A stretch of DNA of 64,000 nucleotides from Rugosibacter sp. Lineage in GTDB: Bacteria; Pseudomonadota; Gammaproteobacteria; Burkholderiales; Rhodocyclaceae. Both the position numbers and the translations under genes were made by a program. Where the stretch lies: the NCBI GenBank assembly GCA_030645365.1, contig JAUSMB010000064.1:23989-87988 (forward strand). The letters are read 5' to 3'. The notes under the pieces were generated by a model. It was given only the letters and a program-made list of their open reading frames with translations. It was not told the DNA's origin and made no database searches. Shown piece by piece: positions 1,921 to 63,992 of this stretch; position 1 is the stretch's first letter; each line of letters begins with the position of its first letter.

Positions 1921-1944
1921 AAAAGTCGGCGCTGGTGAGACGGC
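1921..1944 (+). repeat. dispersed 24-nt word, copy 1 (intergenic)
   Basis: aaaagtcggcgctggtgagacggc, 16 nt after the dctA stop, same sense as dctA. Confidence 0.9.
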
Positions 1945-2030
1945 AACTTCAACTTCTACACCAAAGACAGGCATTCGACGCGTAAAGGTACATTTACAAT
2001 CGCTGGCGAGGCTCGGTAATGCAGCACACC

Positions 2031-2061
2031 AAAAACAAACGGCTCCCTATATGGGGAGCCG
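2031..2061 (-). terminator. rho-independent terminator downstream of tRNA-Met
   Basis: Stem 2040-2047 / 2054-2061 (cggctccc / gggagccg), followed on the minus strand by tttgttttt. Confidence 0.6.
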
Positions 2062-2070
2062 CATGAATTC

Positions 2071-2147
2071 TGGTGGTGATGGGGGGACTTGAACCCTCGA
2101 CCTACGGATTATGAATCCGTCGCTCTAACCAGCTGAGCTACATCACC
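2071..2147 (-). tRNA. tRNA-Met (anticodon CAT), elongator-type; tRNA-Ile2 (lysidine) cannot be excluded
   Basis: Reverse complement is GGTGATGTAGCTCAGCTGGTTAGAGCGACGGATTCATAATCCGTAGGTCGAGGGTTCAAGTCCCCCCATCACCACCA. Cloverleaf is evident, with anticodon loop TTCATAA, T-loop GGTTCAAGTCC and an encoded CCA end. It lacks the initiator features (G1 is paired; no GGG/CCC anticodon stem). Confidence 0.9.
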
Positions 2148-2231
2148 GTGCACAATGGTGCAAAGGGGCGAGATTATCCCTTTCGCACGTCCACCTTGTC
2201 AAGGAAGGCGTGCGTAGGAGACAATCGCGGT

Positions 2232-3413
2232 ATGGATTTTGATATCGTTATTGTTGGCGGCGGGCTCGCCGGGCTTGCATTGGCGGCGGCTTTGCGCCGA
2301 TCCTCGTTGTCTGTGGCACTGGTTGAAGGCACGGTGCCGGTTTTTCCTGCCAAGGGTCCGGGCGATTTTTCTACTATGTGGGATAGCCGGGTGTATGCCA
2401 TCAGCCCGGCGAATGCGCGCTTTCTTGAGCAGATTGGCATCTGGCAGCATCTTGACCACGCGCGCATGGAGCCCGTAAGCGCCATGCAAATTTTTGGTGA
2501 TGGCAAAGGCCGGCTCGATTTTTCAGCTTATGACAGCGGGGTTGACGAATTGGCGTGGATTCTTGAGTCGTCGCTCATGCAGGCCGAATTGTGGGAAATG
2601 CTCAAGCGGCAAGGCAACCTCACGATGTTTTGTCCTGCATCAGCCCAAGCGCTGACACTGGATGAGGCGGCAGCCGAACTCATACTGACCGACGGACGTA
2701 AACTGCGCGCACACCTGATTGTCGCGGCCGATGGTGCCGACTCTTGGACGCGCAGCGCAGCAGGCATTGAGGTGGAATGCAAAAACTACAATCAGCTCGG
2801 TGTCGTGGCCAATTTTGCCGCTGCGCTACCGCATCGCGGCACAGCTTTTCAGTGGTTTCGTCGGGATGGCATTTTGGCTTGGCTGCCTTTGCCTGGCCAA
2901 CATGTGTCGATGGTCTGGTCAACGGCCTCTGCGCATGGCGAGGAATTGTTATCGCTTTCGCCAAGCGCCTTGTGCGAGAAGGTGGCCGCAGCGGGAGGGC
3001 ATGCGCTGGGTGCCCTGGAATTGATCACCCCGCCGACGGCATTTCCGCTGCGCCTGATGCGTGCATCGCCCACGGTGTTGCCACGCCTGGCTTTAGTTGG
3101 CGATGCGGCGCACACGGTCCATCCGCTGTCTGGGCACGGTATCAATCTGGGCTTTCAGGATGTGCAGGCATTGGCGCACGCGCTACTTGCCTCGCCAACG
3201 CAGGACGATTGCGGCGACTTTTCGCTGTTGCGCAGATTTGAGCGCGCGCGTAAAGAAGAGGTTTTTATGCTACAAACCGCTACCGATCATTTGCAACGCT
3301 TGTTTGATGTTCGTCGCGGGCCGTTAGTTGGCTTGCGTAACGTGGGGTTGAGCCTCACTAACCATTTGCCAGTCGTAAAGGATGCGTTGGTCCGTTATGC
3401 TTTGGCATCCTGA
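2232..3413 (+). CDS. FAD-dependent ubiquinone-biosynthesis hydroxylase, UbiH/UbiF/VisC/COQ6 family
   Basis: ORF 2148..3413. The upstream part of the ORF overlaps the tRNA, so the start is taken at ATG 2232 (MDFDIVIVGGGLAGLALA, a GxGxxG FAD fold). DGADS and GDAAHTVHPLSGHGINLG motifs are present. Confidence 0.85.
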   Translation: MDFDIVIVGGGLAGLALAAALRRSSLSVALVEGTVPVFPAKGPGDFSTMWDSRVYAISPANARFLEQIGIWQHLDHARMEPVSAMQIFGDGKGRLDFSAYDSGVDELAWILESSLMQAELWEMLKRQGNLTMFCPASAQALTLDEAAAELILTDGRKLRAHLIVAADGADSWTRSAAGIEVECKNYNQLGVVANFAAALPHRGTAFQWFRRDGILAWLPLPGQHVSMVWSTASAHGEELLSLSPSALCEKVAAAGGHALGALELITPPTAFPLRLMRASPTVLPRLALVGDAAHTVHPLSGHGINLGFQDVQALAHALLASPTQDDCGDFSLLRRFERARKEEVFMLQTATDHLQRLFDVRRGPLVGLRNVGLSLTNHLPVVKDALVRYALAS

Positions 3414-3426
3414 TTTTTCTGGAGAA

Positions 3427-4116
3427 ATGATGAATAAAAAATTTATTGCAGCAACGGCTTTACTGGCCAGCTTTTCTATCGGCGCTTTGGCGGGTGAGGC
3501 CGAAGTTAAAAAGGCGCTTGAGGCCACTGTGGGCAAGGTTGAAAAAATCAGCAAAGCACCCATTCCAGGCATGTGGGAAGTCACGGTTGGTGGTCAGATT
3601 TTTTATGCGGATGACAAAGGCACTTATCTGCTCGCCGGAAATTTGATCGAGATCAAAACGGGTAAAAACTTGACATCAGAGCGCCAGTTCAATGCGCTGC
3701 CGCTTGAGCTGGCATTTAAACAAGTGCGCGGTAACGGCAAAAATGTATTAGTCACATTTGAAGATCCCAACTGCGGCTACTGCAAAAAACTGGCGAAAGA
3801 ATTGCAGTCTGTCCAAAACCTCACTTTGTACACTTTTCTTTACCCCGTGCTGGGAGAAGATTCCACCGAGAAATCCAAAATGATCTGGTGTGCCCCGGAT
3901 AAAGCCAAGGCCTGGAATGACTGGATGATTCGCAACAAAGCCTTGCCCGCATTACCCGCCAAATGTGATACCGCCGGGCTGGAAAAATCAGTGGAACTGG
4001 GTCAAAAATTGCGCATCAACGGCACGCCAGCGATGTTCTTCGCCACCGGCGAGCGGGTAGGCGGCTATATTCCAGCAACGGAAATTGAAAAACGTTTTAA
4101 CGCGAAAGGCGGTTAA
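3427..4116 (+). CDS. dsbC: periplasmic thiol:disulfide interchange protein DsbC/DsbG family
   Basis: Signal peptide MMNKKFIAATALLASFSIGALA from ATG 3427 with a GGAG RBS. Thioredoxin-fold CGYC active site (FEDPNCGYCKKL). Confidence 0.85.
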   Translation: MMNKKFIAATALLASFSIGALAGEAEVKKALEATVGKVEKISKAPIPGMWEVTVGGQIFYADDKGTYLLAGNLIEIKTGKNLTSERQFNALPLELAFKQVRGNGKNVLVTFEDPNCGYCKKLAKELQSVQNLTLYTFLYPVLGEDSTEKSKMIWCAPDKAKAWNDWMIRNKALPALPAKCDTAGLEKSVELGQKLRINGTPAMFFATGERVGGYIPATEIEKRFNAKGG

Positions 4117-4137
4117 TCCAGTCATCGCCATGCTGTA

Positions 4138-4161
4138 AAAAGTCGGCGTTGGTGATACGGC
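4138..4161 (+). repeat. dispersed 24-nt word, copy 2 (intergenic)
   Basis: aaaagtcggcgttggtgatacggc, 21 nt after the dsbC stop, same sense as dsbC. Confidence 0.9.
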
Positions 4162-4176
4162 GGTAATAGACGGTAA

Positions 4177-4220
4177 TAGAGAGTGACGCGACAATCAATC
4201 GCATCACTCTCTATTTTTTT
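4177..4220 (+). terminator. rho-independent terminator after dsbC
   Basis: Arms tagagagtgacgc (4177-4189) and gcatcactctcta (4201-4213) with one mismatch, followed by a T7 run. Confidence 0.7.
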
Positions 4221-4245
4221 GCCAAGGCCTCGCGTATTAACTACC

Positions 4246-5448
4246 TTAAAAAGAAGTTTCGCGTTCGGCAGATGCAGTAATTTTATGGATGGTCAAATCG
4301 GAGCCCTCAAATTCTTCTTCCGCATCAAGCCGGATGCCGACGAAGAATTTAAGTAGCCCATATACTAAAAAACCACCCGCTAGCGCGATCACAATACCCA
4401 TGAGCGTGCCAATCAGCTGACTGGGCAGTGCTACGCCGCCTCTGCCGCCCCAGGCGGTCGCACCAAAAATACCTGCAGCTATCCCGCCCCAGGCACCGCA
4501 AAGCCCATGAAGAGGCCAGACGCCCAGCACATCGTCAATTTTCCAACGATTCTGCGTGAGGGTGAACATCACCACAAACAACCCACCGGCGATACTGCCC
4601 GTGGCCAGCGCCCCGAGGGGATGCATCACATCCGAGCCAGCGCAAACAGCCACCAGCCCGGCCAAAGCCCCATTATGTACAAAGCCGGGGTCGTTCTTGC
4701 CGACCACTAAGGCTGCCAGCGTGCCGCCCACCATCGCCATCAGCGAATTGAGCGCGACCAGGCCAGACACTTTATCCAGCGTTTGCGCACTCATCACATT
4801 AAAACCGAACCAACCCACAATGAGAATCCATGCGCCCAAAGCTAAAAACGGCACGCTGGAAGGCGGATGCGCAGCAATTGCACCGTTTTTGTCATAGCGT
4901 CCACGCCGTGGGCCAAGCAATAGCACCGCCGCTAACGCCGCCCAGCCACCCACGGCATGCACCACAACTGAACCGGCAAAATCGTGAAATTCCGCGCCAA
5001 ACTGCTGGACAAGCCAAGGCTGAACGCCAAACGCACGGTTCCAGGCAATACCTTCAAAAAATGGGTAAACAAAACCTACCAGACAAAATGTCGCGGCGAG
5101 TTGCGGTTTAAATTTGGCACGCTCGGCAATGCCGCCAGAGATAATCGCCGGGACGGCGGCGGCAAAAGTCAGCAGAAAGAAAAATCGCGTGAGTTCAAAG
5201 CCGCTGTTTTTAGCAAGCACTTCGGCAGTGCTAAAAAAATGGACGCCATACGCGATGCCGTAGCCAATAAAAAAGTAAGCCAGCGTTGAAATTGAAAAAT
5301 CTGCCAGAATTTTAACCAGCGCATTGATCTGATTTTTTTTACGGACTGTTCCCAGCTCCAAAAAAGCGAAGCCGGCGTGCATCGCCAAAATCATGATGGC
5401 GCCCAGCAAAATAAATAAAACATCGGCAGAGGCTTTCAACGGTTCCAT
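4246..5448 (-). CDS. amtB: ammonium transporter (Amt family)
   Basis: 400-aa polytopic protein. Contains ILAMHAGFAFLELG, FAAAVPAIISGGIAER, DFAGSVVVHAVGGW and LGVWPLHGLCGAWGG, all classic Amt signatures. Confidence 0.9.
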   Translation of the reverse strand: MEPLKASADVLFILLGAIMILAMHAGFAFLELGTVRKKNQINALVKILADFSISTLAYFFIGYGIAYGVHFFSTAEVLAKNSGFELTRFFFLLTFAAAVPAIISGGIAERAKFKPQLAATFCLVGFVYPFFEGIAWNRAFGVQPWLVQQFGAEFHDFAGSVVVHAVGGWAALAAVLLLGPRRGRYDKNGAIAAHPPSSVPFLALGAWILIVGWFGFNVMSAQTLDKVSGLVALNSLMAMVGGTLAALVVGKNDPGFVHNGALAGLVAVCAGSDVMHPLGALATGSIAGGLFVVMFTLTQNRWKIDDVLGVWPLHGLCGAWGGIAAGIFGATAWGGRGGVALPSQLIGTLMGIVIALAGGFLVYGLLKFFVGIRLDAEEEFEGSDLTIHKITASAERETSF

Positions 5449-5559
5449 GCGGGTAATCCTTTCGTTAATGCACTAAAGTAAGGCGAAAAACGAAATTACA
5501 AAGCAAAAAACATTCCTATTTTAATATTTATATTTATCAAATAGTTATAAAAAATTTAC

Positions 5560-5611
5560 CTAAAATAATGCGCCAAAACAGTGCTCATAAAATAGATAAG
5601 CACTGTTTTGG
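5560..5611 (-). terminator. hairpin terminator downstream of mltA
   Basis: Perfect 13-bp stem ccaaaacagtgct (5573-5585) / agcactgttttgg (5599-5611), immediately 3' of the mltA stop, followed on the minus strand by a moderately U-rich stretch. Confidence 0.5.
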
Positions 5612-5623
5612 TGACAACCACAC

Positions 5624-6838
5624 TCACTTTGGTGCGGCGTCAGGAACATAGCCTTTGGGCATGAGCACCCATACCCGTCCCGTCTGGCGCATCTTGCCGG
5701 CAAGACTACCGGCATCAGGGCCGCTGCCCCAGTAATAATCGCCGCGTACAGCCCCGCGAATAGCGCCTCCCGTATCCTGCGCCAGCATCAGCCGGGTGAG
5801 TGCCTGCTCACTGTTTGGCCGCGTTGTAGCAAGCCAAACGGGGGCGCCCAAGGGGATATAGCGTGGATCAACCGCCAAAGAACGTTCTGGCGTCAACGGA
5901 ATGCCCAGAGCGCCTGGCGGGCCTTTGCCGATTAAAGGTAATTCTCGAAAAAACACCATGCTCGGATTTTGGTTCAGCAATTCTTCCAACCGCTGCGGAT
6001 TCAACTTCGCCCACGCCTTGATGCCTTGCATGGATGCCTGTTCCATGGTGATCTCGCCCTGATCAATTAACCAACGCCCGATGGATCGGTAAGGGTGCCC
6101 GTTTTGATCGGCATAGCCAAGGCGAATACGACTGCCATCATCCAGTGCCACCTGGCCTGAGCCCTGCACTTGCATGAAAAATAAATCCACGGCGTTTGCT
6201 ACCCAGGCAATCGCTTTTTGTGAGTGCTTGCTTTCTTTTTGACGCCACTCTGATCTAGCATAGTAAGGAACAACTTTTTTACCCTCGAGACGCCCGCGCA
6301 GCCGAAGATGTTTAAGCTCAGGATAAAGTTCAGACAAATCTACCGTGACCAGATCGTCTGGCGGGCCATATACCGGGTAAGGGTTTTGGCGAGAAGGCGT
6401 GCGACTGCCTTGCAACACAGGTTCAAAATAGCCGGTGATCATTCCCGTGCGAGAGCCATCGGCATTTACCATCACCCAGGGCTGAAACTGGGTTTTAAAC
6501 CATTGGCGCAAAGCGTCGGCGCTTTGTATATCGGCGGTACGCGCCGCCGCGCACACGGGTTGCCATAACGCTTGCTTTGCCAGCACGCGACAGCTATCAA
6601 GAAAAGCCGCCAACACCGGCGCAGGATCATCGGCTTCCCAGCCAGTGAGATCATCCCACTGTGCAACTTGCATTGGTGACGCAGGAGGCAGGGAAACATC
6701 GCTTGGCGGACTTGCCACGCAGGTAGGCAAAGCTGCGCACCGCTGTGGTGCATTTATTGGAGGAATGGGTGTTGTCATGCAACTGGCCAGCGCAAACGAC
6801 AGGCCCGTGAGGAGTAGATAGATAGGGATGCGTTTCAT
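5624..6838 (-). CDS. mltA: membrane-bound lytic murein transglycosylase A
   Basis: ORF 5624..7006. The lipoprotein signal MKRIPIYLLLTGLSFALASC begins at ATG 6838. MltA-like 3D/DPBB region present (DTGGAIRGAVRGDYYWG). Confidence 0.85.
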   Translation of the reverse strand: MKRIPIYLLLTGLSFALASCMTTPIPPINAPQRCAALPTCVASPPSDVSLPPASPMQVAQWDDLTGWEADDPAPVLAAFLDSCRVLAKQALWQPVCAAARTADIQSADALRQWFKTQFQPWVMVNADGSRTGMITGYFEPVLQGSRTPSRQNPYPVYGPPDDLVTVDLSELYPELKHLRLRGRLEGKKVVPYYARSEWRQKESKHSQKAIAWVANAVDLFFMQVQGSGQVALDDGSRIRLGYADQNGHPYRSIGRWLIDQGEITMEQASMQGIKAWAKLNPQRLEELLNQNPSMVFFRELPLIGKGPPGALGIPLTPERSLAVDPRYIPLGAPVWLATTRPNSEQALTRLMLAQDTGGAIRGAVRGDYYWGSGPDAGSLAGKMRQTGRVWVLMPKGYVPDAAPK

Positions 6839-6881
6839 GAATCTGCTAAAGTTCGCCGCGTTAAAACCCCAGAGTGTACCG

Positions 6882-7763
6882 ATGACTGACTTTTCTCGCT
6901 TTCTTCTTCGCGCCGAAACTTTAATTGACCGTCTTGAAGCAATCTTGCCGCCCACTTTGCCGGTGACCGACTGGTCGGCCTGTGCTTTTCGCTGGCGTAC
7001 GCGCAACGGTCGCGGCTGGCTCGAAGACGTGCGTCACCCGCATGCCATTCGCTTGACCGATTTGCAAGGCGTTGAGCCACAAAAAAAGCGCATCGAACAA
7101 AACACGCGGCAATTTGTACAAGGCAAAAGTGCCAACAATGTACTGCTCACCGGGGCGCGTGGCACGGGCAAAAGCTCGCTCGTGAAAGCGGTGCTAAACC
7201 AGTTTTCTCGGCGTGGATTGCGCTTGATTGAAGTGGATAAAGACGATCTGGTTTATTTACCTGACATTGTGGATCTGGTTTTTGGACGCCGCGAAAAATT
7301 CATTATTTTCTGCGACGATTTATCGTTCGAAGCGAACGAGCCGGGTTACAAAGCCATGAAGAGTCTGCTGGATGGTTCCATCACCGGCATGCCAGAAAAC
7401 CTGCTGGTCTATGCCACCTCCAACCGGCGCCACCTGATGCCGGAAAAAATGGCTGAAAATCTTGAAGCAACCTACACTGACGATGGTGACGTGCACCCCG
7501 GCGAAACGACTGAAGAAAAAATCTCGCTGTCTGAACGCTTTGGCTTATGGCTGTCTTTTTACGCCTTCACGCAAGATGAATATCTTGCCATTTGTGCCCA
7601 TTGGCTCACCGTTTTTGGCTACCCCATCGACACGCTGGCGCCAGGCAATCCCATCCGCAGCGAAGCCTTGCAATGGACGCAGATGCGCAGCTCGCGCAGC
7701 GGTCGCGTAGCCTGGCAATTTGCCCGGGATTACGCGGGTCGACATAGCCGTCCGAAAAAATGA
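6882..7763 (+). CDS. AAA-type ATP-binding protein, DUF815 family
   Basis: Walker A LLTGARGTGKSSLVKA and Walker B FIIFCDDLSF. The start is taken at ATG 6882 (MTDFSRFLLR) to avoid overlap with the divergent mltA. Confidence 0.7.
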   Translation: MTDFSRFLLRAETLIDRLEAILPPTLPVTDWSACAFRWRTRNGRGWLEDVRHPHAIRLTDLQGVEPQKKRIEQNTRQFVQGKSANNVLLTGARGTGKSSLVKAVLNQFSRRGLRLIEVDKDDLVYLPDIVDLVFGRREKFIIFCDDLSFEANEPGYKAMKSLLDGSITGMPENLLVYATSNRRHLMPEKMAENLEATYTDDGDVHPGETTEEKISLSERFGLWLSFYAFTQDEYLAICAHWLTVFGYPIDTLAPGNPIRSEALQWTQMRSSRSGRVAWQFARDYAGRHSRPKK

Positions 7764-8701
7764 AAGTCACGCATGTCGCCGCGGCCGTTATTGAACGCGC
7801 GAATGGACAATTTTTATTAGGCCAGCGCGCAGCCAATACGTTTTATCCCGGGTATTGGGAATTTCCCGGCGGCAAAGTCGAACCCGGGGAAACAGCGCGT
7901 GAAGCCCTGGTGAGGGAACTGCATGAAGAACTCGGCATCAAGGTTTTGCGTGCCGACCCGTGGTTACACCGTGAGCATGTTTATGCACATGCGCATGTGC
8001 ATCTTCATTTTTTTCGAGTACGTGCCTGGCAAAATGAGATTTGTCATCACGTACATAGCGCACTCACCTGGCAAACGCCGGGTGCGCTGACCGTTCAGCC
8101 GATGTTGCCGGCTAATGCGCCAGTATTGGCTGCGCTGGCCTTGCCTGCGTTTTACGCCATCACGCATGCCGCAGAAATCGGCGTTGCTGCTCAACTCGAA
8201 GCACTTGATCGCGCCTTGGAAAACGGGATCAAGCTTGTACAGCTGCGCGAGCCGACGCTTAGCCCTCAACAACGGGAAGCGTTTGTTCACGCAGCAGTCA
8301 AAAGCTGTCACACCTCGGGCGCTCGCGTGCTGGTCAACGGCGATCCGTTGCTGGCTTTGGCGGCTGGGGCTGATGGTTTCCACCTGACATCCGCGCAACT
8401 GGCCGCCTGCACAACACGCCCTGAGTTTCCGCTGGTGGCTGCGTCGTGCCACTCTCCTGCCGAGTTGCTGCACGCAACGCAGATTGGTTGTGATTTCGTG
8501 GTTTATGGACCCCTACGCGAAACCGCAACGCACCCTGGGCAAGCAGGTTTGGGATGGGCAGCTTTCGCAGCAGAGATTAATCACCCATTTGCCGTACCAC
8601 CAACGCCGACTTTTGCCTTGGGCGGATTATCACGCGATGATCTTGACACTGCCCGCGCTTGCGGAGCACATGGCATCGCTGCCATTCGTTCAGCCTGGTA
8701 A
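7760..8701 (+). CDS. Nudix (MutT-like 8-oxo-dGTP diphosphatase) fused to a thiamine-phosphate-synthase (ThiE/TenI)-like domain
   Basis: N-terminal Nudix box GYWEFPGGKVEPGETAREALVRELHEELG. The C-terminal 170 aa resemble the TMP-TENI fold (LVQLREP...VLVNGD...GFHLTS...). ATGA overlap with the upstream gene. Confidence 0.8.
   Translation: MKVTHVAAAVIERANGQFLLGQRAANTFYPGYWEFPGGKVEPGETAREALVRELHEELGIKVLRADPWLHREHVYAHAHVHLHFFRVRAWQNEICHHVHSALTWQTPGALTVQPMLPANAPVLAALALPAFYAITHAAEIGVAAQLEALDRALENGIKLVQLREPTLSPQQREAFVHAAVKSCHTSGARVLVNGDPLLALAAGADGFHLTSAQLAACTTRPEFPLVAASCHSPAELLHATQIGCDFVVYGPLRETATHPGQAGLGWAAFAAEINHPFAVPPTPTFALGGLSRDDLDTARACGAHGIAAIRSAW
8591..8614 (-). repeat. dispersed 24-nt word, copy 3 (inside the Nudix-ThiE CDS, antisense)
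   Basis: + strand reads gccgtaccaccaacgccgactttt, encoding AVPPTPTF. Confidence 0.85.
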
Positions 8702-8738
8702 AGACAATCGTATCGTTGAGCGACTGATTTCTACGTCG

Positions 8739-8945
8739 TTATTCTGATTCGTTACTCAGCGGCGCTTCTTCGCTGGCGGCAACGCGATAGGCTTCGCTTT
8801 CCCATGCGCCTAAATCATAGGTCTTGCAACGCGCAGAACAAAATGGTCGAAAGCGACTTGCTTCCACCCATTCGACTGGCGTCCGACAACGCGGACACAA
8901 TACGATACGTGGTGGTTTGGATAAATCAGAGTGATTAGGCGCCAT
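8739..8945 (-). CDS. yacG: DNA gyrase inhibitor YacG (zinc ribbon)
   Basis: CPRCRTPVEW...FCSARCKTYDLGAW matches the 4-Cys YacG signature. Sits in the canonical yacG-zapD-coaE context. Confidence 0.85.
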   Translation of the reverse strand: MAPNHSDLSKPPRIVLCPRCRTPVEWVEASRFRPFCSARCKTYDLGAWESEAYRVAASEEAPLSNESE

Positions 8946-8947
8946 GT

Positions 8948-9703
8948 TTACAGATTACAAAGCGTCATTTCAAACTCGACATCGGTCTCCATCTGGCGTG
9001 GCCGTTGCGTCATATCCGGTCGCAAAAAACGTACATTGATGGCGAGCTTGCCGGCGGAGATTTCCGGTATCACGGGGTTATCTTTTCTGATTTGCAAACG
9101 AACCAGTTGGTAATTGCGTCCACCCAGCATGACCTGATAAGCGCCTCGCTGAGCTATAAGTCGATCCGAGCGGCCAGATGCACGCAGCAGGCGCAACACA
9201 ATCGTCAACGCCTGTCGGATAGGCAACATGGGCGTCAACCAGGCCTCAATGTCTTTTTGTCGCACTGGCGCATCACTATTTAACCAATAGTGGTAGCCCG
9301 GCAGATCAAACTCACACACGCCACCCGGAATCGCGACTCGATTTTTAATGCTCATTAACCAATCGTTTTCGCGCAGATAATGGCCAATTTTTCCCTGCAC
9401 GGCAAGCAATTGCGTACTTGCCTGCTCAATTTCATAGAGTGCGCCCGAAAGTGCATCTTCAGAGATGTCCGGATTGTTGCGGAAAGACAGCAAAATCTGT
9501 CGCTGACGCTCCAGCTCCTGAACCAGATCAAATTTCAAATCGGCACGGCCAGCCACTTCAAGAATCTCAAACAACAACACCAGCGCTGCATGATGTTCAG
9601 CGGCACCTTTAGCGGAGGCGAAATGTATGATTTTTTCAAACAGATCTTCGAGCCGCAGCAAAGTGCGCACTCGCTCGCTAAGAGGATATTCGTAGGTAAT
9701 CAC
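8948..9703 (-). CDS. zapD: cell-division protein ZapD (YacF)
   Basis: MITYEYPLSERVRTLLRLEDLFEK is the typical ZapD N-terminus. 251 aa, located between coaE and yacG. Confidence 0.85.
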   Translation of the reverse strand: MITYEYPLSERVRTLLRLEDLFEKIIHFASAKGAAEHHAALVLLFEILEVAGRADLKFDLVQELERQRQILLSFRNNPDISEDALSGALYEIEQASTQLLAVQGKIGHYLRENDWLMSIKNRVAIPGGVCEFDLPGYHYWLNSDAPVRQKDIEAWLTPMLPIRQALTIVLRLLRASGRSDRLIAQRGAYQVMLGGRNYQLVRLQIRKDNPVIPEISAGKLAINVRFLRPDMTQRPRQMETDVEFEMTLCNL

Positions 9704-9757
9704 ACACGGGCCAAGTGAACAAAATGAATCGCATTGTCCCCGAAATTTAGCTAAATC

Positions 9758-10378
9758 TCAACCCACATGCCGGGCCAATGCGAGATATTTATCGTGCAAA
9801 CGCGCCACTTGCGGTGTTAATGCTGCCAGTTGGCCATCATTTTCTATGACATCATCAGCAACAGCCAAGCGCTCGGCGCGAGTCGCTTGCGCTTGCAAAA
9901 TTCGCTCAACCTCATTTTGGGACAAACCATTACGGGCCATGACACGGCGAACTTGGGTCGCTTCAGAGCAATCCACCACAGCGATACGTTGGACACGTCG
10001 GCGATAAGTCCCTGACTCAATTAAGAGTGGCACAACAAGAATAATGTAAGACGGATTGTTGCGCGAGTTCTCAACGTTAATACGCCGTTCAACCTCAGCA
10101 CGAATTAATGGATGCAAAATGGCTTCAAGTCGCTTGCGCTCTTCAGGCTGAGAAAATATATGTGCGCGCATCGCCGCACGATCAAGCGCACCATCGGGCA
10201 TGACCATGTTTTCGCCAAAACCGGCACGAATGCTCGGCATCGCTGCGCCGCTGGCAGCTGTCAGCATGTGGGAGACTGCGTCAGTATCGATCACAGGCAC
10301 CTGATGCGCAGCAAACAAATCTGCCACTGCGCTTTTTCCGCTACCAATCCCGCCGGTTAATCCGATGAGGTAACTCAC
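9758..10378 (-). CDS. coaE: dephospho-CoA kinase
   Basis: LIGLTGGIGSGKS P-loop at the N-terminus; 206 aa. Confidence 0.9.
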   Translation of the reverse strand: MSYLIGLTGGIGSGKSAVADLFAAHQVPVIDTDAVSHMLTAASGAAMPSIRAGFGENMVMPDGALDRAAMRAHIFSQPEERKRLEAILHPLIRAEVERRINVENSRNNPSYIILVVPLLIESGTYRRRVQRIAVVDCSEATQVRRVMARNGLSQNEVERILQAQATRAERLAVADDVIENDGQLAALTPQVARLHDKYLALARHVG

Positions 10379-10429
10379 GCTAGCGGTAGCGCTTGATGAG
10401 AAGCGTCGTACAGTTTATAGCCATCGAAT

Positions 10430-11083: not shown

Positions 11084-11098
11084 CGGATTATTCTGGCC

Positions 11099-54620: not shown

Positions 54621-54623
54621 AGT

Positions 54624-54810: not shown

Positions 54811-55146
54811 ATGTATAGGGTTGTAATTCTTCAGTTTGTCGGGGTGCTGGTTGCGGCAGGATTAGCTAGCATATGGTTAGGGCAACAAGGTGCGCTGTCG
54901 GTTCTGCTTGGTGGGATGGCATACGCTATTCCCAACCTGTTGTTTGTAGCGAGATTGACTGTTTCTGCAGCAAAAAAACAGACGAATGCAGTTACTTTTT
55001 TTGTTGGCGAGCTGGTTAAAGTCCTCGCCACAGTAGTACTTTTGGTCGTTGCTCAGCGGTTCTACCCTGTGCACTGGTTGGCATTGTTGGTGGGGCTTTT
55101 TGTCGCTTTAAAAGCTAATTTGTTTGCGCTATTGTTAAAAAACTGA
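54811..55146 (+). CDS. atpI: ATP synthase protein I
   Basis: 111-aa hydrophobic protein, first in the atp operon. Confidence 0.75.
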
Positions 55147-55148
55147 TT

Positions 55149-55973
55149 ATGTCATCAAGCACTGAAAACGCGCCTGTCGCAGGCGACTATATCGTCCATC
55201 ACCTGACCCATTTGACCAATACTGGTCATAAGCAGACGGCGGTTATTGATTGGACAATAATCAATGTGGATACTCTTTTCTGGTCTGTCAGTATGGGTGT
55301 GCTGGCGATCATTTTCATGGTTGTTGCCGCACGGCGAGCTACGTCGGGCGTGCCTGGTCGTCTTCAAGGCGCTGTTGAAATGCTGGTTGAAATGGTTGAG
55401 ACCCAGTCAAAAGCCATCGTTCATGGAGATCGCCGGTTTATAGCGCCGGTTGCGCTGACCGTGTTTATTTGGATTTTGTTCATGAATGCTCTCGACTTTC
55501 TGCCGGTGGATCTCTTGCCCAGAATCGCGGAATTATTTGGGGTGCATTATCAGCGCATCGTACCCACTGCCGATCTGAATGGCGCGCTTGGCATGTCGCT
55601 TGGGGTGTTGCTACTTTGTCTTTACTACAATATCAAAATTAAAGGGTTTGGTGGCTGGGTGCATGAGCTATTTACCGCGCCTTTCGGTAATCATCCCTTG
55701 CTGTACCCTGTGAACTTTGCCATGCAGATGATTGAGTTTATTGCTAAAACCGTATCTCACGGCATGCGACTCTTTGGCAATATGTATGCGGGTGAGTTGG
55801 TGTTCATGCTCATCGCTTTGATGGGTAGTACTGCTACCGCCTTGGGTTTTTTTGGTCATGTGGTGGCGGGTTCGATCTGGGCAATTTTTCACATATTGAT
55901 TGTTGTGTTGCAGGCATTTATCTTCATGATGCTGACGCTGGTGTACATCGGCCAGGCACATGAAAGTCACTAG
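55149..55973 (+). CDS. atpB: F0F1 ATP synthase subunit a
   Basis: 274 aa. Contains the [14 protein letters not shown] motif with the essential Arg. Confidence 0.95.
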
Positions 55974-56016
55974 TTGCAGTAATTAGTAGTTTTTTAAAGT
56001 TGTATATTTTATATAA

Positions 56017-56274
<258 letters not shown>

Positions 56275-56301
56275 GCGCGTCTTTTCTAAAGGACCAATAA
56301 C

Positions 56302-56772
56302 GTGAATCTGAACGCAACGCTGTTTGCCCAGCTGGCTGTGTTCTTTGTTTTGGCGTGGTTTACGATGAGATTCGTATGGCCGCCCATCATGAAGGCATTA
56401 GACGAGCGTGCGGGTAAAATCGCTGACGGACTTGCGGCGGCTGACAAGGCAAAGGCTGATTTGGTGCATGCTGAGAAAAAGGCTGCTGAAGAATTGCGTC
56501 ATGCACGCGAGTCGGCTGCTGAGTTTCGCAGTGGGGCGGAGAAGCAGGCCGCTCAATTGCTTGAAGAAGCTCGCACTGAGGCTGCTCGAGTGATTTCGGT
56601 TGCCCGTGATGCCGCTCAAGCCGAAGCAGGTGTCGCTGCTCAACGCGCCAAAGAGGCGTTGCGTGAACAAGTCGCGCTGCTGGCTGTTGCAGGCGCCGAG
56701 AAAATTCTTCGCAAGGAAATTAACCCTCAGGCGCATGCCGAGCTGCTTTCTCAGCTGAAGTCGGAGCTTTGA
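56302..56772 (+). CDS. atpF: F0F1 ATP synthase subunit b
   Basis: GTG start. N-terminal TM segment [20 protein letters not shown], then a long charged helix. Confidence 0.9.
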
Positions 56773-56778
56773 TTAGAC

Positions 56779-57318
56779 ATGGCTGAAAACGTTACGCTCG
56801 CCCGGCCTTATGCGGAAGCTGCATTCCAGTTAGCTAAAAATAATCCTGCCGATTTGCTCTCATGGGCTGAAACCCTTGGATGCTTGTCAGGCATTACGGC
56901 CGATCCAGCGATGGCAGCGTGTATTGGTAATCCGCGATTTAGTCCTGCGCAGTTGGCTCAGCTTTATTTTGAGGCGGCTGGCGGCAAGCTTGATGCGGAT
57001 CAGCAAAATTTTGTTCGTGTGCTGGTTGATAACGATCGCCTGACAGTTCTGCCAGAAATTGCTGCATTGTTTGACAAACTCAAAGCTGATGCCCAAGGTA
57101 TTAAACACGCCGAGATTACTTCGGCTTTTCCTCTCGATGATGCCGCGTTAAAAAAACTGGTAGCTGAACTTGAACATAAGTTTGCATGCCAGATACAAGC
57201 AACGATTAAGCTTGATCCCGAGCTTATCGGTGGTGTGCGTATGGCTGTTGGCGACGAGGTGATTGATGCCTCGGTTCGCGGCAAACTTGCTGCTATGGCG
57301 ATTGCCCTAAAGAACTAG
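56779..57318 (+). CDS. atpH: F0F1 ATP synthase subunit delta
   Basis: 179 aa. [11 protein letters not shown]-terminus and ...[21 protein letters not shown]-terminus. Confidence 0.9.
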
Positions 57319-57328
57319 GAGTTATTTG

Positions 57329-58867
57329 ATGAATTTAAATCCATCCGAAATTAGTGAGCTGATTAAAACGCGGATTCAGGCCATGCAGCTGCCCGCAACA
57401 GCGCGTAATGAAGGTACCGTGGTTTCAGTGACCGACGGCATATGTCGTGTGCATGGTCTGGCGGACGTTATGCAGGGCGAAATGCTGGAGTTTCCCGGCA
57501 ATACGTTTGGTTTAGCCCTTAACCTGGAGCGCGATTCAGTGGGCGCCGTGGTGTTGGGCGATTACGAGCATATTTCCGAGGGCGATACTGTTAAATGTAC
57601 AGGCCGTATTCTCGAAGTGCCTATCGGCCCTGAACTTCTGGGCCGTGTAGTGAATGCTCTGGGCGAGCCGATTGATGGGAAAGGTCCCATCAACGCAAAA
57701 CTCACCGACAAGCTTGAAAAAGTAGCTCCTGGCGTTATTTGGCGTAAATCGGTATCGCAGCCTGTGCAAACTGGTCTTAAGGCGATTGATTCGATGGTGC
57801 CGGTAGGGCGTGGGCAGCGCGAATTGATCATTGGCGATCGTCAAACAGGCAAGACGGCTGTTGCGGTTGACGCCATCATCAATCAAAAAGGCCAGAACGT
57901 GTTCTGCGTCTATGTGGCGATTGGCCAAAAAGCATCCACCGTGGCCAACGTCGTGCGTAAGCTCGAAGAGCATGGTGCAATGGAGTACACGGTTGTCGTT
58001 GCTGCTACCGCATCCGATTCAGCCGCGATGCAGTTTCTTGCACCTTACGCAGGCTGCACCATGGGCGAGTATTTCCGTGATCGCGGCATGGATGCGCTGA
58101 TTGTTTACGATGATTTAACAAAGCAGGCATGGGCCTACCGTCAAATATCCCTCTTATTGCGCCGTCCCCCAGGCCGTGAAGCTTATCCAGGTGATGTGTT
58201 CTACCTGCATTCGCGTTTGCTTGAGCGTGCCGCACGTGTCTCCGAGGCTTGGGTTGAAAGGCTGACCAACGGCGAAGTTAAGGGGAAAACGGGCTCATTG
58301 ACGGCTTTGCCCATCATTGAAACCCAAGCTGGTGACGTTTCTGCTTTTGTGCCAACAAACGTGATTTCGATTACAGACGGTCAGATTTTCCTTGAGACTG
58401 ATTTGTTTAATGCCGGTATCCGTCCCGCCATGAATGCCGGTATCTCGGTATCGCGTGTGGGTGGTGCAGCGCAGACCAAAGTCATCAAGAAACTTGGTGG
58501 TGGCGTTCGCTTATCGCTTGCCCAGTACCGCGAACTGGCGGCATTTGCTCAATTTGCTTCAGATCTGGACGAGGTAACGCGTAAGCAGCTTGAGCGTGGT
58601 CGTCGTGTGACTGAATTGATGAAACAGTTGCAGTATTCGCCTTTGTCGGTTGCTGATATGGCAATTTCATTGTTCGCTTCGAATGAAGGCTTCATGGATG
58701 ACATCGATGTGCCACGCATTCTGGCATTTGAGGCGGCGCTGCATCAGGCCATGCACCAGAAGCATGCTGATCTGGTAGCCAAGATCGAAACAACGAAAGA
58801 CCTGGACAAAGATGCCGAAGTGCAACTCAAGGCAGCTATTGCTGATTTCAAGAAATCTTGGGCTTGA
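57329..58867 (+). CDS. atpA: F0F1 ATP synthase subunit alpha
   Basis: ORF starts at TTG 57326. ATG 57329 lies 7 nt after [14 protein letters not shown]-loop. Confidence 0.97.
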
Positions 58868-58901
58868 TTTACGGCACCTGACTGGTTAATAAAGGGCGAT
58901 C

Positions 58902-59777
58902 ATGGCAGGTAGTAAAGAGATACGTAGCAAAATCAAGAGCGTGCAAAACACGCGCAAGATTACCAAGGCTATGGAGATGGTGGCCGCATCGAAAATGCGC
59001 AAGGCGCAGGAAAGGATGCGTGCTGCACGCCCCTACAGTGAAAAAATCCGTCGCTTGGCGGCCAATCTTTCACATGCCTTGATGACCGATTATCGGCATC
59101 CTTTTCTGACGAAGCAGGCCTCGGTCAAGCGTGTTGGTTTAATTGTTATTACTACTGATAAAGGTTTGTGTGGTGGGTTAAATACCAATGTACTGCGCTT
59201 GTCGTTAAGTTCCATGCGACAGTGGGAGGCACAAGGTATTAAAGATATCAACATCACCTGTATTGGTAATAAGGGCTTGGGCTTTATGCAGCGTTTCGGT
59301 GCCAAGGTTGTGTCACAAATCACTCATATCGGGGATACTCCGCATATGGAAAAGCTGATAGGCCCGATCAAGGTTATGCTCGACGCCTATCAGTCGGGTG
59401 AGTTGGACGAAGTGCATATTGCTTACACGCGCTTCATCAACACCATGTCGCAACAAGCAATAGTTGAACCCCTATTACCACTGACGGGTGAGCGTCTTGG
59501 CACGCCGGAAACCGGTTGGGATTATCTGTATGAGCCTGATGCGCAAACAGTGGTTGATGATTTGCTGCTGCGCTATGTCGAAGCTTTGATTTATGAAGGT
59601 GTGACAGAAAATATGGCCTCCGAGCAATCGGCGCGTATGGTTGCCATGAAAGCTGCAACGGATAATGCAGGGAGCGTCATCAAAGAGTTGCAGCTTGTTT
59701 ATAACAAAGCCCGTCAAGCAGCAATTACCAAAGAAATCTCGGAAATAGTTGGTGGCGCAGCGGCAATTGCTGGCTGA
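58902..59777 (+). CDS. atpG: F0F1 ATP synthase subunit gamma
   Basis: [36 protein letters not shown] is the canonical gamma N-terminus. Confidence 0.95.
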
Positions 59778-59790
59778 GCCCGATTTATAA

Positions 59791-61221
<1,431 letters not shown>

Positions 61222-61248
61222 TTATTGCGGCGAAAAGAAAGATAAAAT

Positions 61249-61671
61249 ATGGCTATGACAGTTCATGTAGATGTAGTCAGTGCAGAAGCCTCCATTTTCT
61301 CCGGCTTGGCTGAGTTTGTTGCTTTGCCGGGTGAAAATGGCGAGTTGGGGATTTTGCCAGGCCATATGCCGCTGATGACCCGCATCAAACCGGGCGCAGT
61401 ACGCATCAAGCTGCCGCAGGGCAAAGAAGAGCTTATTTTTGTTGCTGGTGGTTTGCTTGAAGTACAGCCTGGATTAGTGACGGTGCTGGCAGATACAGCA
61501 ATTCGTGGCGCGGACCTTGATCAAGCTAAAGCGCTGGAAGCCAAGAAGCGTGCTGAGGAAGCTTTGGCAAGCCGCAGCGCTGAAGTAGATTATGCCCGTG
61601 CGCAGGCTGAGTTGAGTGAAGCGATTGCACAGCTATCCGCAATTGAGCGCTTACGCAAGCATGGCCATTAA
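61249..61671 (+). CDS. atpC: F0F1 ATP synthase subunit epsilon
   Basis: 140 aa. [13 protein letters not shown]...LPGHMPLMT is typical epsilon. Confidence 0.9.
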
Positions 61672-61693
61672 AATCGAGTAATAGGAATGAAAT

Positions 61694-61721
61694 AAAAAAG
61701 GCAGCGTAAGCTGCCTTTTTT
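61694..61721. terminator. bidirectional rho-independent terminator (atpC / sodB)
   Basis: aaaaaa-ggcagc-gtaa-gctgcc-tttttt. Confidence 0.8.
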
Positions 61722-61739
61722 ATGCCTCAGGTGTTTTGA

Positions 61740-62324
61740 TTATGCAAAGTTTTTTTCTGCAAAATTCCAATTAGCGAGCGAAGCGAGGAAGGTTTCCACG
61801 AATTTTGGCCGCGCATTGCGATAATCAATGTAGTAAGCATGTTCCCATACATCAATGGTCAGCAACGCCTTATCGCCAGAAGTTAGTGGTGTGCCTGCAG
61901 CGCTGGTGTTGACGATATCTACTGAACCGTCAGCCTTTTTTACCAGCCATGTCCAGCCTGAGCCGAAATTGCCAACAGCGGACGTCTGAAACGCTTTTTT
62001 GAACTCTTCAAAACCACCCCATTTGGCAGTGATTGCAGCTGCCAATGCACCGCTTGGTAGACCACCACCAGCGACTTTCATGCTGTTCCAGAAAAATGTG
62101 TGGTTCCAGACTTGCGCCGCGTTATTGAAGATACCGCCAGCAGGTGCTTTTTTGACGATGGCTTCAAGCTCAAGGTTTTCGTACTCTGTATTTTTGATCA
62201 GATTATTAAGATTGGTCACGTAGGCTTGATGATGCTTACCGTAATGATATTCAAAGGTTTCTTTTGAAATATGGGGTGCAAGTGCATCCATTGCGTACGG
62301 CAGGGTTGGCAGAGTGTGTTCCAT
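61740..62324 (-). CDS. sodB: Fe/Mn superoxide dismutase (Fe-type)
   Basis: [36 protein letters not shown] and [13 protein letters not shown] motifs; 194 aa. Confidence 0.95.
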
Positions 62325-62693
62325 AGTAACTTCCTTTAAAAATGAGCGAATAGTAAGACGAAATAGAGCCGGTGATTTTAGCTAGCAATACGCCAAGTAA
62401 CAACGTTTCCACTGCAGAATCTAACATATTTACTTTCACGAAAAGATAAGCTTGGAGTATTTTTCTGCACTTGCTAGTTGTTGAAAATTATAAAAATACA
62501 AGGAGATAAGGTCGAGGCATAAATCTTATTTTCTCGACCCGCAGGTGTTAATTTTTCTGCTTATCTTTATCAGTGCGATGTATTAGTTTTATCCGCTATG
62601 TGGCTTGGATTTGCTCTTGGTGCGATATCACCATAATTTTTTTTGCAAAGACTTTTAGCCAGTTGGCCATCTGCCAGCGACTTACTGCCGGGG

Positions 62694-63287
62694 TTAACTC
62701 AGGCGCTGTAGTCTTTTTTCCAGCCGCGCCATGTCGTTGCGCAGCTTATCCACATCGGCTGAAAAGTCGGCGATGGTGTTACGGCGAACTAAAGTTGGTT
62801 GTTCTTCGATGAGATATTCACTGACATTTTCTGCCAGATTCATGGCGCGCTTTTTTTGATTAGCCAAAAAAATGTGAGCGCCCGCTACCAGCCGATGCGA
62901 GACAATATCACCAAAAACTTTGGAAAGATCTTCTTCCACATCCCAGCGCAGGTGTTGCAAAACATAACCCAGACTTTGTGCAAACTCTGCGGAACCGTTG
63001 ATGCGTGCCGCACGCATTATTGCTGCTTGGCCTTGCAGTGCCAAAAAAGGCGTGCTGGCCGGTAAGTCGATCGATACCTCAGGTTCGGTATCGGGTGTTG
63101 TTGCGGCGATCAAGCCTTCTGGTGTCACGCTGAATGTAGCGGAAAAAGGCGGGAGAGACATTTTTGCGCATTGGCCCGTAAACGGCTGCAATTTCATCCG
63201 CGCCCAAGCGGTCTGACCCAACAGATGATTAACCGCCGCTGCCAGTGTTGTTACGGCAACCATCCTGGGGTCAGACAGAGAAGGCAT
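62694..63287 (-). CDS. ubiJ: SCP2-domain ubiquinone biosynthesis accessory factor UbiJ-like
   Basis: 197 aa. SCP2-like N-terminal part and a C-terminal amphipathic helix DVDKLRNDMARLEKRLQRL. Lies downstream of a Tim44-like gene, as in other betaproteobacteria (from memory). Confidence 0.6.
   Translation of the reverse strand: MPSLSDPRMVAVTTLAAAVNHLLGQTAWARMKLQPFTGQCAKMSLPPFSATFSVTPEGLIAATTPDTEPEVSIDLPASTPFLALQGQAAIMRAARINGSAEFAQSLGYVLQHLRWDVEEDLSKVFGDIVSHRLVAGAHIFLANQKKRAMNLAENVSEYLIEEQPTLVRRNTIADFSADVDKLRNDMARLEKRLQRLS
62762..62785 (+). repeat. dispersed 24-nt word, copy 13 (inside the ubiJ CDS, antisense; 2 mismatches)
   Basis: aaaagtcggcgatggtgttacggc. The gene strand encodes RRNTIADFS. 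Confidence 0.8.
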
Positions 63288-63293
63288 ACGCGG

Positions 63294-63992
63294 TTAGTCT
63301 TGCTGAATGCCGGCCACTTGCCAGCCGCTGGCGCCGCTTAGCGGCTTTACGAGATGCCACACCTCGGAAAAAGCTTCGGGCGCATTCTGCGCGTCTTCAC
63401 GCAATTGTCCATGAAACCGCACGCTCGCTACATAGCGTGAGGCTTCAGTGGAGACATCTAGCAAGTCTGCTGCTAACTGAACAACATCGGTTTGCTGCGT
63501 AGCGCGTTGCCGCTCCTGAAACTGAAGCTGTATTTCGGCAGCCACTTCTGGTGTAGAAAACAGACGGATGTCTTCCATATCGCCACGATCATTGGCAGCT
63601 TGCAAACGCACGAAGCTGAGTTTGGCCTGGCGTAAAAAGCCTTCCGCATCGAAGTCAGCCGGAATATTCCCGGCGGTGCCTTGGGCAGCAATAGATGCCG
63701 CCGTATCGCCAGCGCCGACTTTTTGCGCATCAAAAGCCATGGGCTCTTGGCGACCGGCAGGGTTTGCTGCAACAGGCTGAGGATACAGAAGGGTATTCCC
63801 TGTGGGGCGGCTACCCAAAAAGCGCCGCAGGAGGAAAATAGCGCCCATGGCTAACAAGGCGATCAGCAAGAAATTAGCCACGCCCTCGCCCATGCCAAAA
63901 TGCGACAGCATGGCGGCTAAGCCTATGCCTGCAGCAAGACCGGCAATTGGTCCCAGCCAGCGGCTCATTCCTGTACGTGGCGGGGTACCCAC
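63294..63992 (-). CDS. Tim44-like domain membrane protein
   Basis: N-terminal TM helices (WLGPIAGLAAGIGLAAML, LLIALLAMGAIFLL), a low-complexity linker, and a C-terminal Tim44-like fold (FDAEGFLRQAKLSFVRLQAAND...WQVAGIQQ). The start is uncertain: GTG 63992, ATG 63968, or beyond the window. Confidence 0.65.
   Translation of the reverse strand: MGTPPRTGMSRWLGPIAGLAAGIGLAAMLSHFGMGEGVANFLLIALLAMGAIFLLRRFLGSRPTGNTLLYPQPVAANPAGRQEPMAFDAQKVGAGDTAASIAAQGTAGNIPADFDAEGFLRQAKLSFVRLQAANDRGDMEDIRLFSTPEVAAEIQLQFQERQRATQQTDVVQLAADLLDVSTEASRYVASVRFHGQLREDAQNAPEAFSEVWHLVKPLSGASGWQVAGIQQD
63700..63723 (-). repeat. dispersed 24-nt word, copy 14 (inside the Tim44-like CDS, sense)
   Basis: + strand reads gccgtatcgccagcgccgactttt. 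In gene sense it encodes KVGAGDT. Identical to the copies at 16869 and 50200. Confidence 0.9.

Follow-up and report, generated by a model that had tools for sequence, protein, structure and literature searches.

Sequence-specific uptake of DNA has been known for about four decades, from two families of bacteria that are both animal-associated. As of late 2025, uptake-enhancing sequences are recognised only in the Neisseriaceae, as the DNA uptake sequence (DUS), and in the Pasteurellaceae, as the uptake signal sequence (USS). The receptors named for such sequences are ComP and, as a prediction obtained with AlphaFold3, PpdA/ComN. Whether the two systems converged or share deep roots is still debated. 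About half of the DUS and USS copies are described as sitting in terminators. Here we describe a different word, of 24-25 nucleotides (nt), that recurs throughout a 64,000-nt stretch of DNA from Rugosibacter sp. (contig JAUSMB010000064.1, positions 23,989 to 87,988; hereafter, the window). An earlier reading of the window from its letters alone, which we call the original prediction, had reported 14 copies of this word and had likened them to DUS and USS. The word belongs to neither of these families. It is restricted to one clade of Betaproteobacteria in the Sterolibacteriaceae (Rugosibacter, Sulfuritalea-like genomes and Sulfurisoma), and it is kept there as a DNA-level signal, beyond protein constraint. 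By analogy with DUS and USS, we put the probability at roughly 0.5 that the word serves this clade as a self-recognition tag of the DNA-uptake-sequence type. Somewhat more tentatively, the same analogy suggests that the Sterolibacteriaceae might have a third, previously unrecognised DNA-uptake specificity, in the form of a two-block word of 25 base pairs (bp) unrelated to DUS or USS.

The consensus unit is AAAAGTCGGCGCTGG-N4-ACGGC(R). It is asymmetric and has a long block and a short block: AAAAGTCGGCGCTGG is followed by four weakly constrained bases and then by ACGGC and a purine. A search of the window for AAAAGTCGGCGCTGGYGATACGGC with at most three mismatches returned 14 matches, exactly at the positions and on the strands first reported, and none in 100 dinucleotide-preserving shuffles. 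The 12-mer AGTCGGCGCTGG, which the original prediction had found to be common to nine copies, does occur nine times (0 expected). At the scale of the window, the nine occurrences of AAAGTCGGCGCTGG compare with 0.003 expected under a third-order Markov model. The commonest 9-, 10- and 12-mers of the window in an unbiased k-mer census are all sub-strings of the word. Across the 14 copies, word positions 2-10 and 20-22 are invariant, as had been observed, and positions 13 and 15 are invariant as well; the copies at 16869, 50200 and 63700 do agree at each of the 24 nt. With a weight matrix derived from these 14 copies, degenerate copies come to light at 37133(-), 40459(-) and 49144(-), along with a doubtful one at 1673(+). 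The total is then 17-18 copies in the window at scores of at least 16-18, and simulated windows give at most 0.1. The density in the window is about one copy per 4.6 kilobases (kb).

The edges of the word are sharp. We mapped them in 237 independent contexts with the 9-mer AAGTCGGCG alone as the seed. Information rises abruptly at position 1 and falls away at position 25-26; no more than 0.1 bit is present in the flanks. The values at positions 12-23 are inflated because about half of the 237 sites were ascertained with a 22-mer pattern; the flank result is unaffected by this. The information content of the word is roughly 35 bits. Similarly, the flanks of the 14 window copies are mutually unrelated when aligned, and we saw no target-site duplication, flanking signature, associated enzyme or guide locus at these copies. 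The word folds into only a weak 4-bp stem, with no meaningful dyad, and has no Rfam match at any site. We also found no description of the word, of its sub-strings or of any repeat in these organisms in the literature. The earlier conclusion that the word matches no known element thus still stands. A direct repeat is shared between the two most conserved blocks, with TCGGC at word positions 6-10 and ACGGC at positions 20-24, 14 bp apart. Given this repeat, two similar DNA-binding modules could read the word in tandem.

Outside the clade, the stretch of mnmE that contains the copy at 50200 is hypervariable, and this copy aligns without gaps with 14 orthologues. It therefore arose by point substitution and not by insertion, a choice that the original prediction had left to be made by alignment of orthologues. 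The copy in rsmG (52539) falls in a variable-length loop and does not discriminate between insertion and substitution. In eight genomes, comparisons restricted to codons for the same amino acid give a silent-site identity of 0.69 for word codons and 0.42 elsewhere in the same genes; third codon positions among these genomes are otherwise close to saturation (mean identity 0.44). When 1,201 blocks of nine codons are ranked by third-codon-position identity, the rsmG copy is 4th and the mnmE copy at 50200 is 5th. The weak copy at 49144 ranks 150th and is not distinguished. Invariance over whole alignments is 0.54 for word columns and 0.54 elsewhere, a comparison that is uninformative because constrained codon positions are mixed in and that is superseded by the silent-site and third-position tests.

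Copies outside coding sequence are also kept. The copy in the parB-atpI spacer is identical at 24 of 24 positions between the window and a contig of the Rugosibacter aromaticivorans type, and its flanks have diverged. The copy at the lipA stop codon matches at 23 of 24 positions in contig L335, of the same type, with zero similarity downstream. At the two sites that the window shares with Sulfurisoma, identity is about 0.83 in the word and 0.51 in the flanks for the aminotransferase gene, and 0.67 and 0.37, respectively, for rlpA. Sites do turn over. For example, the aminotransferase copy is missing in L335, and orthologous copies vary in how well they match the consensus.

The word is found well beyond the window. 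Near-identical metagenome contigs and one metagenome-assembled genome (MAG) at NCBI that has the same AtpD carry the same copies, plus one more past the right edge of the window. Homologues of MnmE and LipA assign the organism to Rugosibacter, and the window proteins are 86% (MnmE) and 96% (LipA) identical to those of cultured R. aromaticivorans. Contigs of the R. aromaticivorans type, whose proteins are identical to those of this species, keep the word at xth, at two sites in mnmE, in rsmG, in the parB-atpI spacer, at the lipA stop codon, in the DUF1302-DUF1329 spacer and in the NUDIX-ThiE gene, and most of these sites are retained in more distant Rugosibacter genomes (MnmE identity 82% and 75%). 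Sulfuritalea-like genomes, with a guanine-plus-cytosine (GC) fraction of 0.59-0.62, retain the yidC, mnmE and rsmG sites, and cultured Sulfurisoma sediminicola (GC 0.66) retains the aminotransferase and rlpA sites. A stringent scan of metagenomes adds at least 120 stretches (693 kb, GC 0.47-0.69), three of them from one contig of 1.03 megabases (Mb); among the matches listed, these stretches have extra copies at about one per 6.7 kb. Extrapolation from the densities in the window and the metagenomes gives about 400-800 copies per 2.9-Mb genome. The word drifts in a dialect-like manner: the letters at positions 1 and 16-19 change with lineage and with GC, and positions 16-19 track genome GC, with GAT in Rugosibacter and GAG, GGG or GGC in the high-GC relatives.

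Outside the clade the word is all but absent. In the parB loci of 80 named betaproteobacterial species (1.38 Mb), the weight matrix finds four weak matches, three in two Sulfuritalea MAGs and one among the other 78 species. Within the clade, the peptide that the word encodes in mnmE, AAEKSALAxRR, is present in nearly all of 120 MnmE homologues, down to 73% identity. The original prediction had asked whether the word might be confined to the window, or whether distant taxa might carry the same string at the same positions purely through protein constraint. Neither is the case: copies occur across the contigs of the clade and the metagenome stretches, and distant taxa lack the word at these positions. 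The two Sulfuritalea MAGs (L127, 5811; L128, 1173) have only a decayed word at the orthologous rsmG and mnmE sites, and other Sulfuritalea-like genomes keep good copies. Whatever maintains the word may have been lost in the lineage of these two MAGs.

The placement of the word is permissive. Nine of the strong copies in the window are in coding sequences (CDSs) and five are in spacers, and four of the five spacer copies start within 25 nt of a stop codon. Both the nine-to-five split and the placement just past stop codons had been reported before. The split carries two qualifications: the copy at 14957 overlaps the lipA stop codon, and the copy at 22871 would no longer count as intergenic if the DUF1329 gene really began at its upstream-most GTG. 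The nine CDS copies use four frames and both orientations and encode KVGAGDT (three copies), AVPPxPTF-like peptides (three), EKSALAxRR (two) and RRNTIADF (one). In mnmE and rsmG the copies occupy protein stretches that are hypervariable or vary in length, the permissive placement seen with DUS and USS. The GC-skew minimum of the window is at about 45-46 kb, adjoining dnaA, and 10 of the 17 copies are on the leading strand. The word therefore has no replication polarity, in agreement with the original prediction, which had found both orientations on both sides of dnaA.

The same pattern holds in a larger sample of 139 unique word sites from 74 metagenome stretches with crude calls of open reading frames (ORFs). 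Thirty-five percent of these sites are outside CDSs, compared with 11% of the sequence that is non-coding (p = 2e-13), which is an enrichment of about threefold, and about half of the non-CDS sites are within 40 nt of the 3' end of a gene. The 90 sites within CDSs occupy all six frames, unevenly (chi-square p = 7e-8): the KVGAGDT frame accounts for 36 of the 90, and the two frames rich in Arg and Trp are the rarest. There is no bias in orientation relative to genes, and neighbouring sites are on the same strand in 40 cases and on different strands in 26, which is not significant.

On average, the word seems to be sparser in mobile DNA than in chromosomes. Plasmids in PLSDB and phages in INPHARED give only chance-level matches (E of at least 0.2). 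In IMG/VR, 120 contigs contain the 14-mer core of the word, and in 49 of them the core is within the full word. These 49 contigs carry further copies at about one per 13.7 kb, compared with one per 4-7 kb in chromosomes. The 71 contigs with a chance 14-mer only serve as an internal control and have no further copies in 685 kb. The inserted blocks in L212-L214 and L335 are also without copies of the word. Four of the IMG/VR contigs, L062 (5353-12873), L065, L081 and L088, are phage-like or mobile-element-like and have the word at chromosomal density or higher. In L062, five copies are clustered in 3.6 kb beside a gene for a ParB-like protein and a gene for a C5 DNA methylase. The densest viral contigs look like real phage or mobile DNA because they encode ParB-like, C5-methylase, RNA-ligase and GIY-YIG proteins along with many ORFans (orphan ORFs).

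Two metagenome contigs, L286 (1-9505, LNAQ01000518.1) and L249 (1-11336, Ga0209066_10006990), are arrays of integron gene cassettes with runs of the word on one strand. Their attC cores are canonical and recurring, with R'' GCCCAAC and R' GTTAGGC or GTTGGGT (GCCCAAC ... GTTRGGY). A cassette of about 300 nt is present in several paralogous copies; it contains the word, with attC some 45 nt further downstream, and its ORF ends in the peptide AVSPAPTF, encoded by the word. The duplicated cassettes carry their own attC sites, and the same-strand runs are a product of cassette duplication and not a property of the word. The word itself is not an attC site: it has neither the R'' (RYYYAAC) nor the R' (GTTRRRY) core.

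An origin by substitution, family-wide upkeep at the level of DNA, the lack of a strand or replication preference, an apparently lower average density in mobile DNA and absence from neighbouring families make up the described signature of uptake sequences, and we therefore rank an uptake-type tag as the best explanation of the word. We postulate that the machinery of competence or of the type IV pilus includes a DNA receptor, exposed on the cell surface, that would bind the asymmetric two-block word and that word-bearing fragments would be preferentially taken up and recombined. Point mutations that create or improve the word would be driven to fixation where they are tolerated, for example in variable protein segments in permissive frames and in the first few tens of bases past genes, and mutations that damage the word would be replaced. 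From the signature we infer an uptake receptor as the reader, natural competence in these bacteria, and upkeep of the word by biased uptake and not by site-by-site selection.

Several observations weigh against an uptake-type tag. At 24-25 nt the word is about twice the length of the known signals (10-12 nt for DUS and 9 nt for the USS core), and it is 4-6 times sparser, at about one copy per 4-7 kb compared with about one per 1 kb in Neisseria and Haemophilus. Unlike DUS and USS, it has no inverted-repeat pairs and, in the part of the window scanned for terminators (1-20000), no association with them. Among 356 sites, no pair on opposite strands is closer than 87 nt, and the word therefore never makes hairpins with itself. 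The word is also long for a single minor pilin, and its length and two-block form suggest a reader that is larger or has more parts. Some phage-like or mobile-element-like contigs have the word at chromosomal density or above (six copies in 8.6 kb in L065 and five in 5.9 kb in L081). Purifying selection acting site by site on a binding site would account just as well for the strong conservation of copies at orthologous positions. We found no report of natural transformation in the Sterolibacteriaceae, nothing relevant in the literature on uptake sequences outside the Neisseriaceae and Pasteurellaceae, and no competence genes in the window. A candidate for comF, the phosphoribosyltransferase-domain gene at 39631-40299, proved to be pyrE. 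The analogy with uptake sequences drawn in the original prediction is thus borne out for over-representation, orientation, frame bias, enrichment past genes, origin by point mutation and limitation to a clade, and it fails for length, density and inverted-repeat terminators.

Since conservation at orthologous positions across genera is what a fixed binding site would also produce, we considered that the word could be bound inside the cell by a clade-specific protein that acts on the whole chromosome, for example in nucleoid structuring, the loading of a condensin or topoisomerase, or the control of replication or repair, with each site under purifying selection. The original prediction had likewise named the recognition word of a chromosomal protein as its alternative. 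The long, asymmetric two-block motif, with its possible NCGGC direct repeat 14 bp apart, would suit a large or multi-domain protein, the spacing of about one per 4-7 kb is similar to what some signals of chromosome architecture show, and putative phages of the clade carry the word too. However, hundreds of sites of about 35 bits would be costly to keep by selection on each site, and degenerate and decaying copies are common. The placement follows tolerance (variable segments, bases just past stop codons and a bias in frame) and not a regular spacing or a position relative to genes. The sites of known chromosomal systems (parS, matS, SlmA and Noc) number in the tens per genome and are usually palindromic and regional, and the parS sites of the window have a different sequence. 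We rank an intracellular binder of this kind as the main rival to an uptake-type tag but consider it rather unlikely.

The word might instead mark self DNA for a nuclease or recombination system, as a Chi-like signal or an anti-defence tag, and selection would then favour its gain by phages and mobile elements of the clade. The Chi site of Escherichia coli is GCTGGTGG, and the word contains GCTGGTG or GCTGGCG, which is seven of the eight bases of Chi. The density of about one per 4.6 kb is near that of Chi in E. coli, and several phage-like or mobile contigs and integron cassettes bear the word, some of them densely. On average, however, mobile DNA seems to carry fewer copies than the chromosomes do. 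Known Chi sites are 5-8 nt long and not 25, and signals of this type are strongly co-oriented with replication, whereas 10 of 17 copies of the word are on the leading strand of the window and there is no strand clustering in the 139 metagenome sites. A Chi-like signal was rejected on polarity, and we judge a self marker of this general kind improbable.

The sharp edges of the copies could also reflect selfish copying of the word into tolerant sites, by RNA- or DNA-guided short-patch gene conversion or by homing with a site-specific enzyme. A word of 24-25 nt in which four tolerant central bases separate a long invariant block from a second, short one recalls the pairing of a guide with its target. 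Against this, the window copies come without an associated enzyme, guide locus, target-site duplication or flanking signature, and the mnmE site differs from its relatives by scattered substitutions in a gapless alignment. The continuum of degeneracy and the independent drift of orthologous copies fit point mutation with biased retention and not repeated rewriting. We regard selfish copying as very improbable.

Finally, we count as refuted the view that a protein motif, an RNA element or a miniature transposable element gives rise to the word as a by-product, even though three CDS copies encode KVGAGDT and two encode EKSALAxRR, and even though the word is inside a longer repeat in two metagenome contigs: those longer repeats are the duplicated integron cassettes with their own attC sites; a protein motif is ruled out by the use of six frames and both gene orientations, by the third of sites that are non-coding and by the conserved third codon positions; a miniature inverted-repeat transposable element (MITE) or repetitive extragenic palindrome (REP) is ruled out by the unrelated flanks, the sharp edges, the lack of terminal repeats or duplications, the weak 4-bp stem and the gapless mnmE copy; and an RNA element or terminator is ruled out by the lack of an Rfam match, the same weak stem and the lack of overlap with terminators in the part of the window that was scanned for them (1-20000), in which no terminator stem is predicted to overlap a copy. 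The rejection of MITE, REP, terminator and clustered regularly interspaced short palindromic repeats (CRISPR) in the original prediction also holds.

The copies in the window and their gene settings are given in Table 1.

Table 1. Copies of the word in the window, with the peptide encoded where a copy is within a gene and the state of orthologous copies. L335 is a contig of the R. aromaticivorans type and L336 is from Sulfurisoma sediminicola.
Feature	Position	Strand	Setting	Encoded peptide	Orthologous copies
Word copy	1921-1944	+	Intergenic; 17 nt past the stop of an SDF symporter gene (594-1904); convergent spacer ahead of a terminator and a tRNA gene		
Word copy	4138-4161	+	Intergenic; 22 nt past the stop of a dsbC-like gene (3382-4116); hairpin plus T-run downstream		
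Word copy	8591-8614	-	Within the NUDIX-ThiE gene (7760-8701, +), antisense	AVPPTPTF	L335, 22/24
Word copy	14957-14980	-	Fills the lipA-rep/uvrD spacer; its first base also ends the lipA stop codon		L335, 23/24
Word copy	16869-16892	-	Class IV aminotransferase gene (16787-17752, -), sense	KVGAGDT	Site kept in L336, absent in L335
Word copy	22871-22894	-	DUF1302-DUF1329 spacer; 9 nt past the DUF1302 stop		Degenerate form kept in L335
Word copy	29840-29863	+	Within rlpA (29027-29992, -), antisense	GVLPAPTF	Weak copy in L336
Word copy	36153-36176	+	Within gatA (35974-37455, +), sense	KVGAGDT	
Degenerate word copy (weight-matrix score 24.4)	37133-37156	-	gatA, antisense		
Word copy, 3 mismatches	38562-38585	-	Within gatB (37452-38909, +), antisense	AVPLAPTL	
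Degenerate word copy (score 24.9)	40459-40482	-	xth (exonuclease III), antisense		Better copies in L207 and L209
Degenerate word copy (score 29.3)	49144-49167	-	mnmE, antisense	RRVTIADF	Stronger in L207 (36.5) and L209 (34.9)
Perfect word copy	50200-50223	+	Within mnmE (49011-50354, +), sense	EKSALAIRR	
Word copy	52539-52562	+	Within rsmG (52340-52978, +), sense; variable-length loop	EKSALAARR	
Word copy	54624-54647	-	parB-atpI spacer; 3 nt past the parB stop, opposite orientation		L207, 24/24; flanks diverged
Word copy	62762-62785	+	Within a UbiJ-like gene of 197 aa (62694-63287, -), antisense	RRNTIADF	
Perfect word copy	63700-63723	-	Tim44-like-domain gene (63294-63992, -), sense	KVGAGDT	

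The window is the replication-origin region, with gyrB-dnaN-dnaA on the minus strand and rpmH-rnpA-yidC-mnmE-mnmG-rsmG-parA-parB, followed by the atp operon, on the plus strand. Its left part contains mreBCD, gatCAB, lipAB and other housekeeping genes. An AT-rich trough at 43000-46000 (GC 0.34-0.38, compared with about 0.50 elsewhere) covers dnaN-dnaA and the presumed origin, oriC. No strong copies of the word are present between 38585 and 50200, where there are only the degenerate copies at 40459 and 49144, and none across the atp operon (54647-62762). The spacer between mnmE and mnmG has two near-perfect parS sites, at 50359-50374 (CGTTTCACGTGAAACA) and 50385-50400 (TGTTTCACGTGAAACT), 10 nt apart, and 11-mers of these sites recur near parB in many other Betaproteobacteria. 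These real parS sites, with their different sequence, rule out parS as the identity of the word. The ORF at 7760-8701 has an N-terminal NUDIX (MutT-like) domain fused to a C-terminal thiamine-phosphate synthase (TMP-TENI), and the same fusion is present in L335. There are tRNA genes at 2074-2147 (-) and 12256-12329 (-). The first of these is just past a strong terminator-like hairpin (2039-2062) and shares a convergent spacer with the word copy at 1921.

If the uptake-type reading is true, a third family with an independent and much longer word is a new data point in the debate over the convergence of DUS and USS. The recognition of self DNA before uptake would then not be peculiar to two host-associated families and would recur in free-living environmental bacteria; the Sterolibacteriaceae are environmental Betaproteobacteria that degrade hydrocarbons and oxidise sulfur. 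The cultured strain R. aromaticivorans Ca6 (complete genome CP010554) makes both the receptor and the uptake bias directly testable. Should the word be read by something other than an uptake receptor, its 25 bp, kept at hundreds of orthologous positions in one family, would nevertheless indicate a genome-wide recognition system that has not been described. A practical use is as a highly specific metagenome marker for the clade, its phages, its cassettes and recently exchanged DNA, and if the word drives uptake, it could offer a route to genetic tractability in bacteria relevant to bioremediation.

Among known systems, parS and ParB resemble the word in having a conserved recognition word for a protein near the origin. 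However, parS is a 16-bp palindrome with few copies, and the two parS sites of the window (50359 and 50385) are unrelated to the word. Chi, like the word, is over-represented, non-palindromic, tolerated in genes and present at about one copy per 4.6 kb, and the word has the Chi-like GCTGGTG or GCTGGCG within it; the 8-nt Chi is strongly co-oriented with replication, whereas the word is 25 nt long and has no polarity.

The likeness to the DUS of the Neisseriaceae (AT-GCCGTCTGAA and its dialects, with the minor pilin ComP as the receptor) lies in the occurrence in one family of Betaproteobacteria, the dialect-like variation between genera, the enrichment just 3' of genes and what seems to be a lower density in mobile DNA than in conserved chromosomal genes. 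The word does not have the CTG core that is common to all DUS dialects. The USS of the Pasteurellaceae (Hin-type core AAGTGCGGT within an extended motif of about 29 nt) is similarly non-palindromic and hugely over-represented, and it occurs in either orientation with no replication polarity. It too occupies permissive positions in genes with a strong bias in frame, is enriched in spacers, originates by point mutation, is found at orthologous positions common to related species and is specific to a single clade, and it too has a conserved core and, a few bases from the core, another conserved element. The 5' end of the word, AAAGTCGGCG, matches USS AAAGTGCGGT at six of 10 positions without gaps, a superficial likeness that we do not regard as significant. 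The sequence and the host class are otherwise different (Betaproteobacteria, Sterolibacteriaceae), and whereas USS consists of a 9-nt core with AT-rich tracts, the word specifies all of its 24-25 positions.

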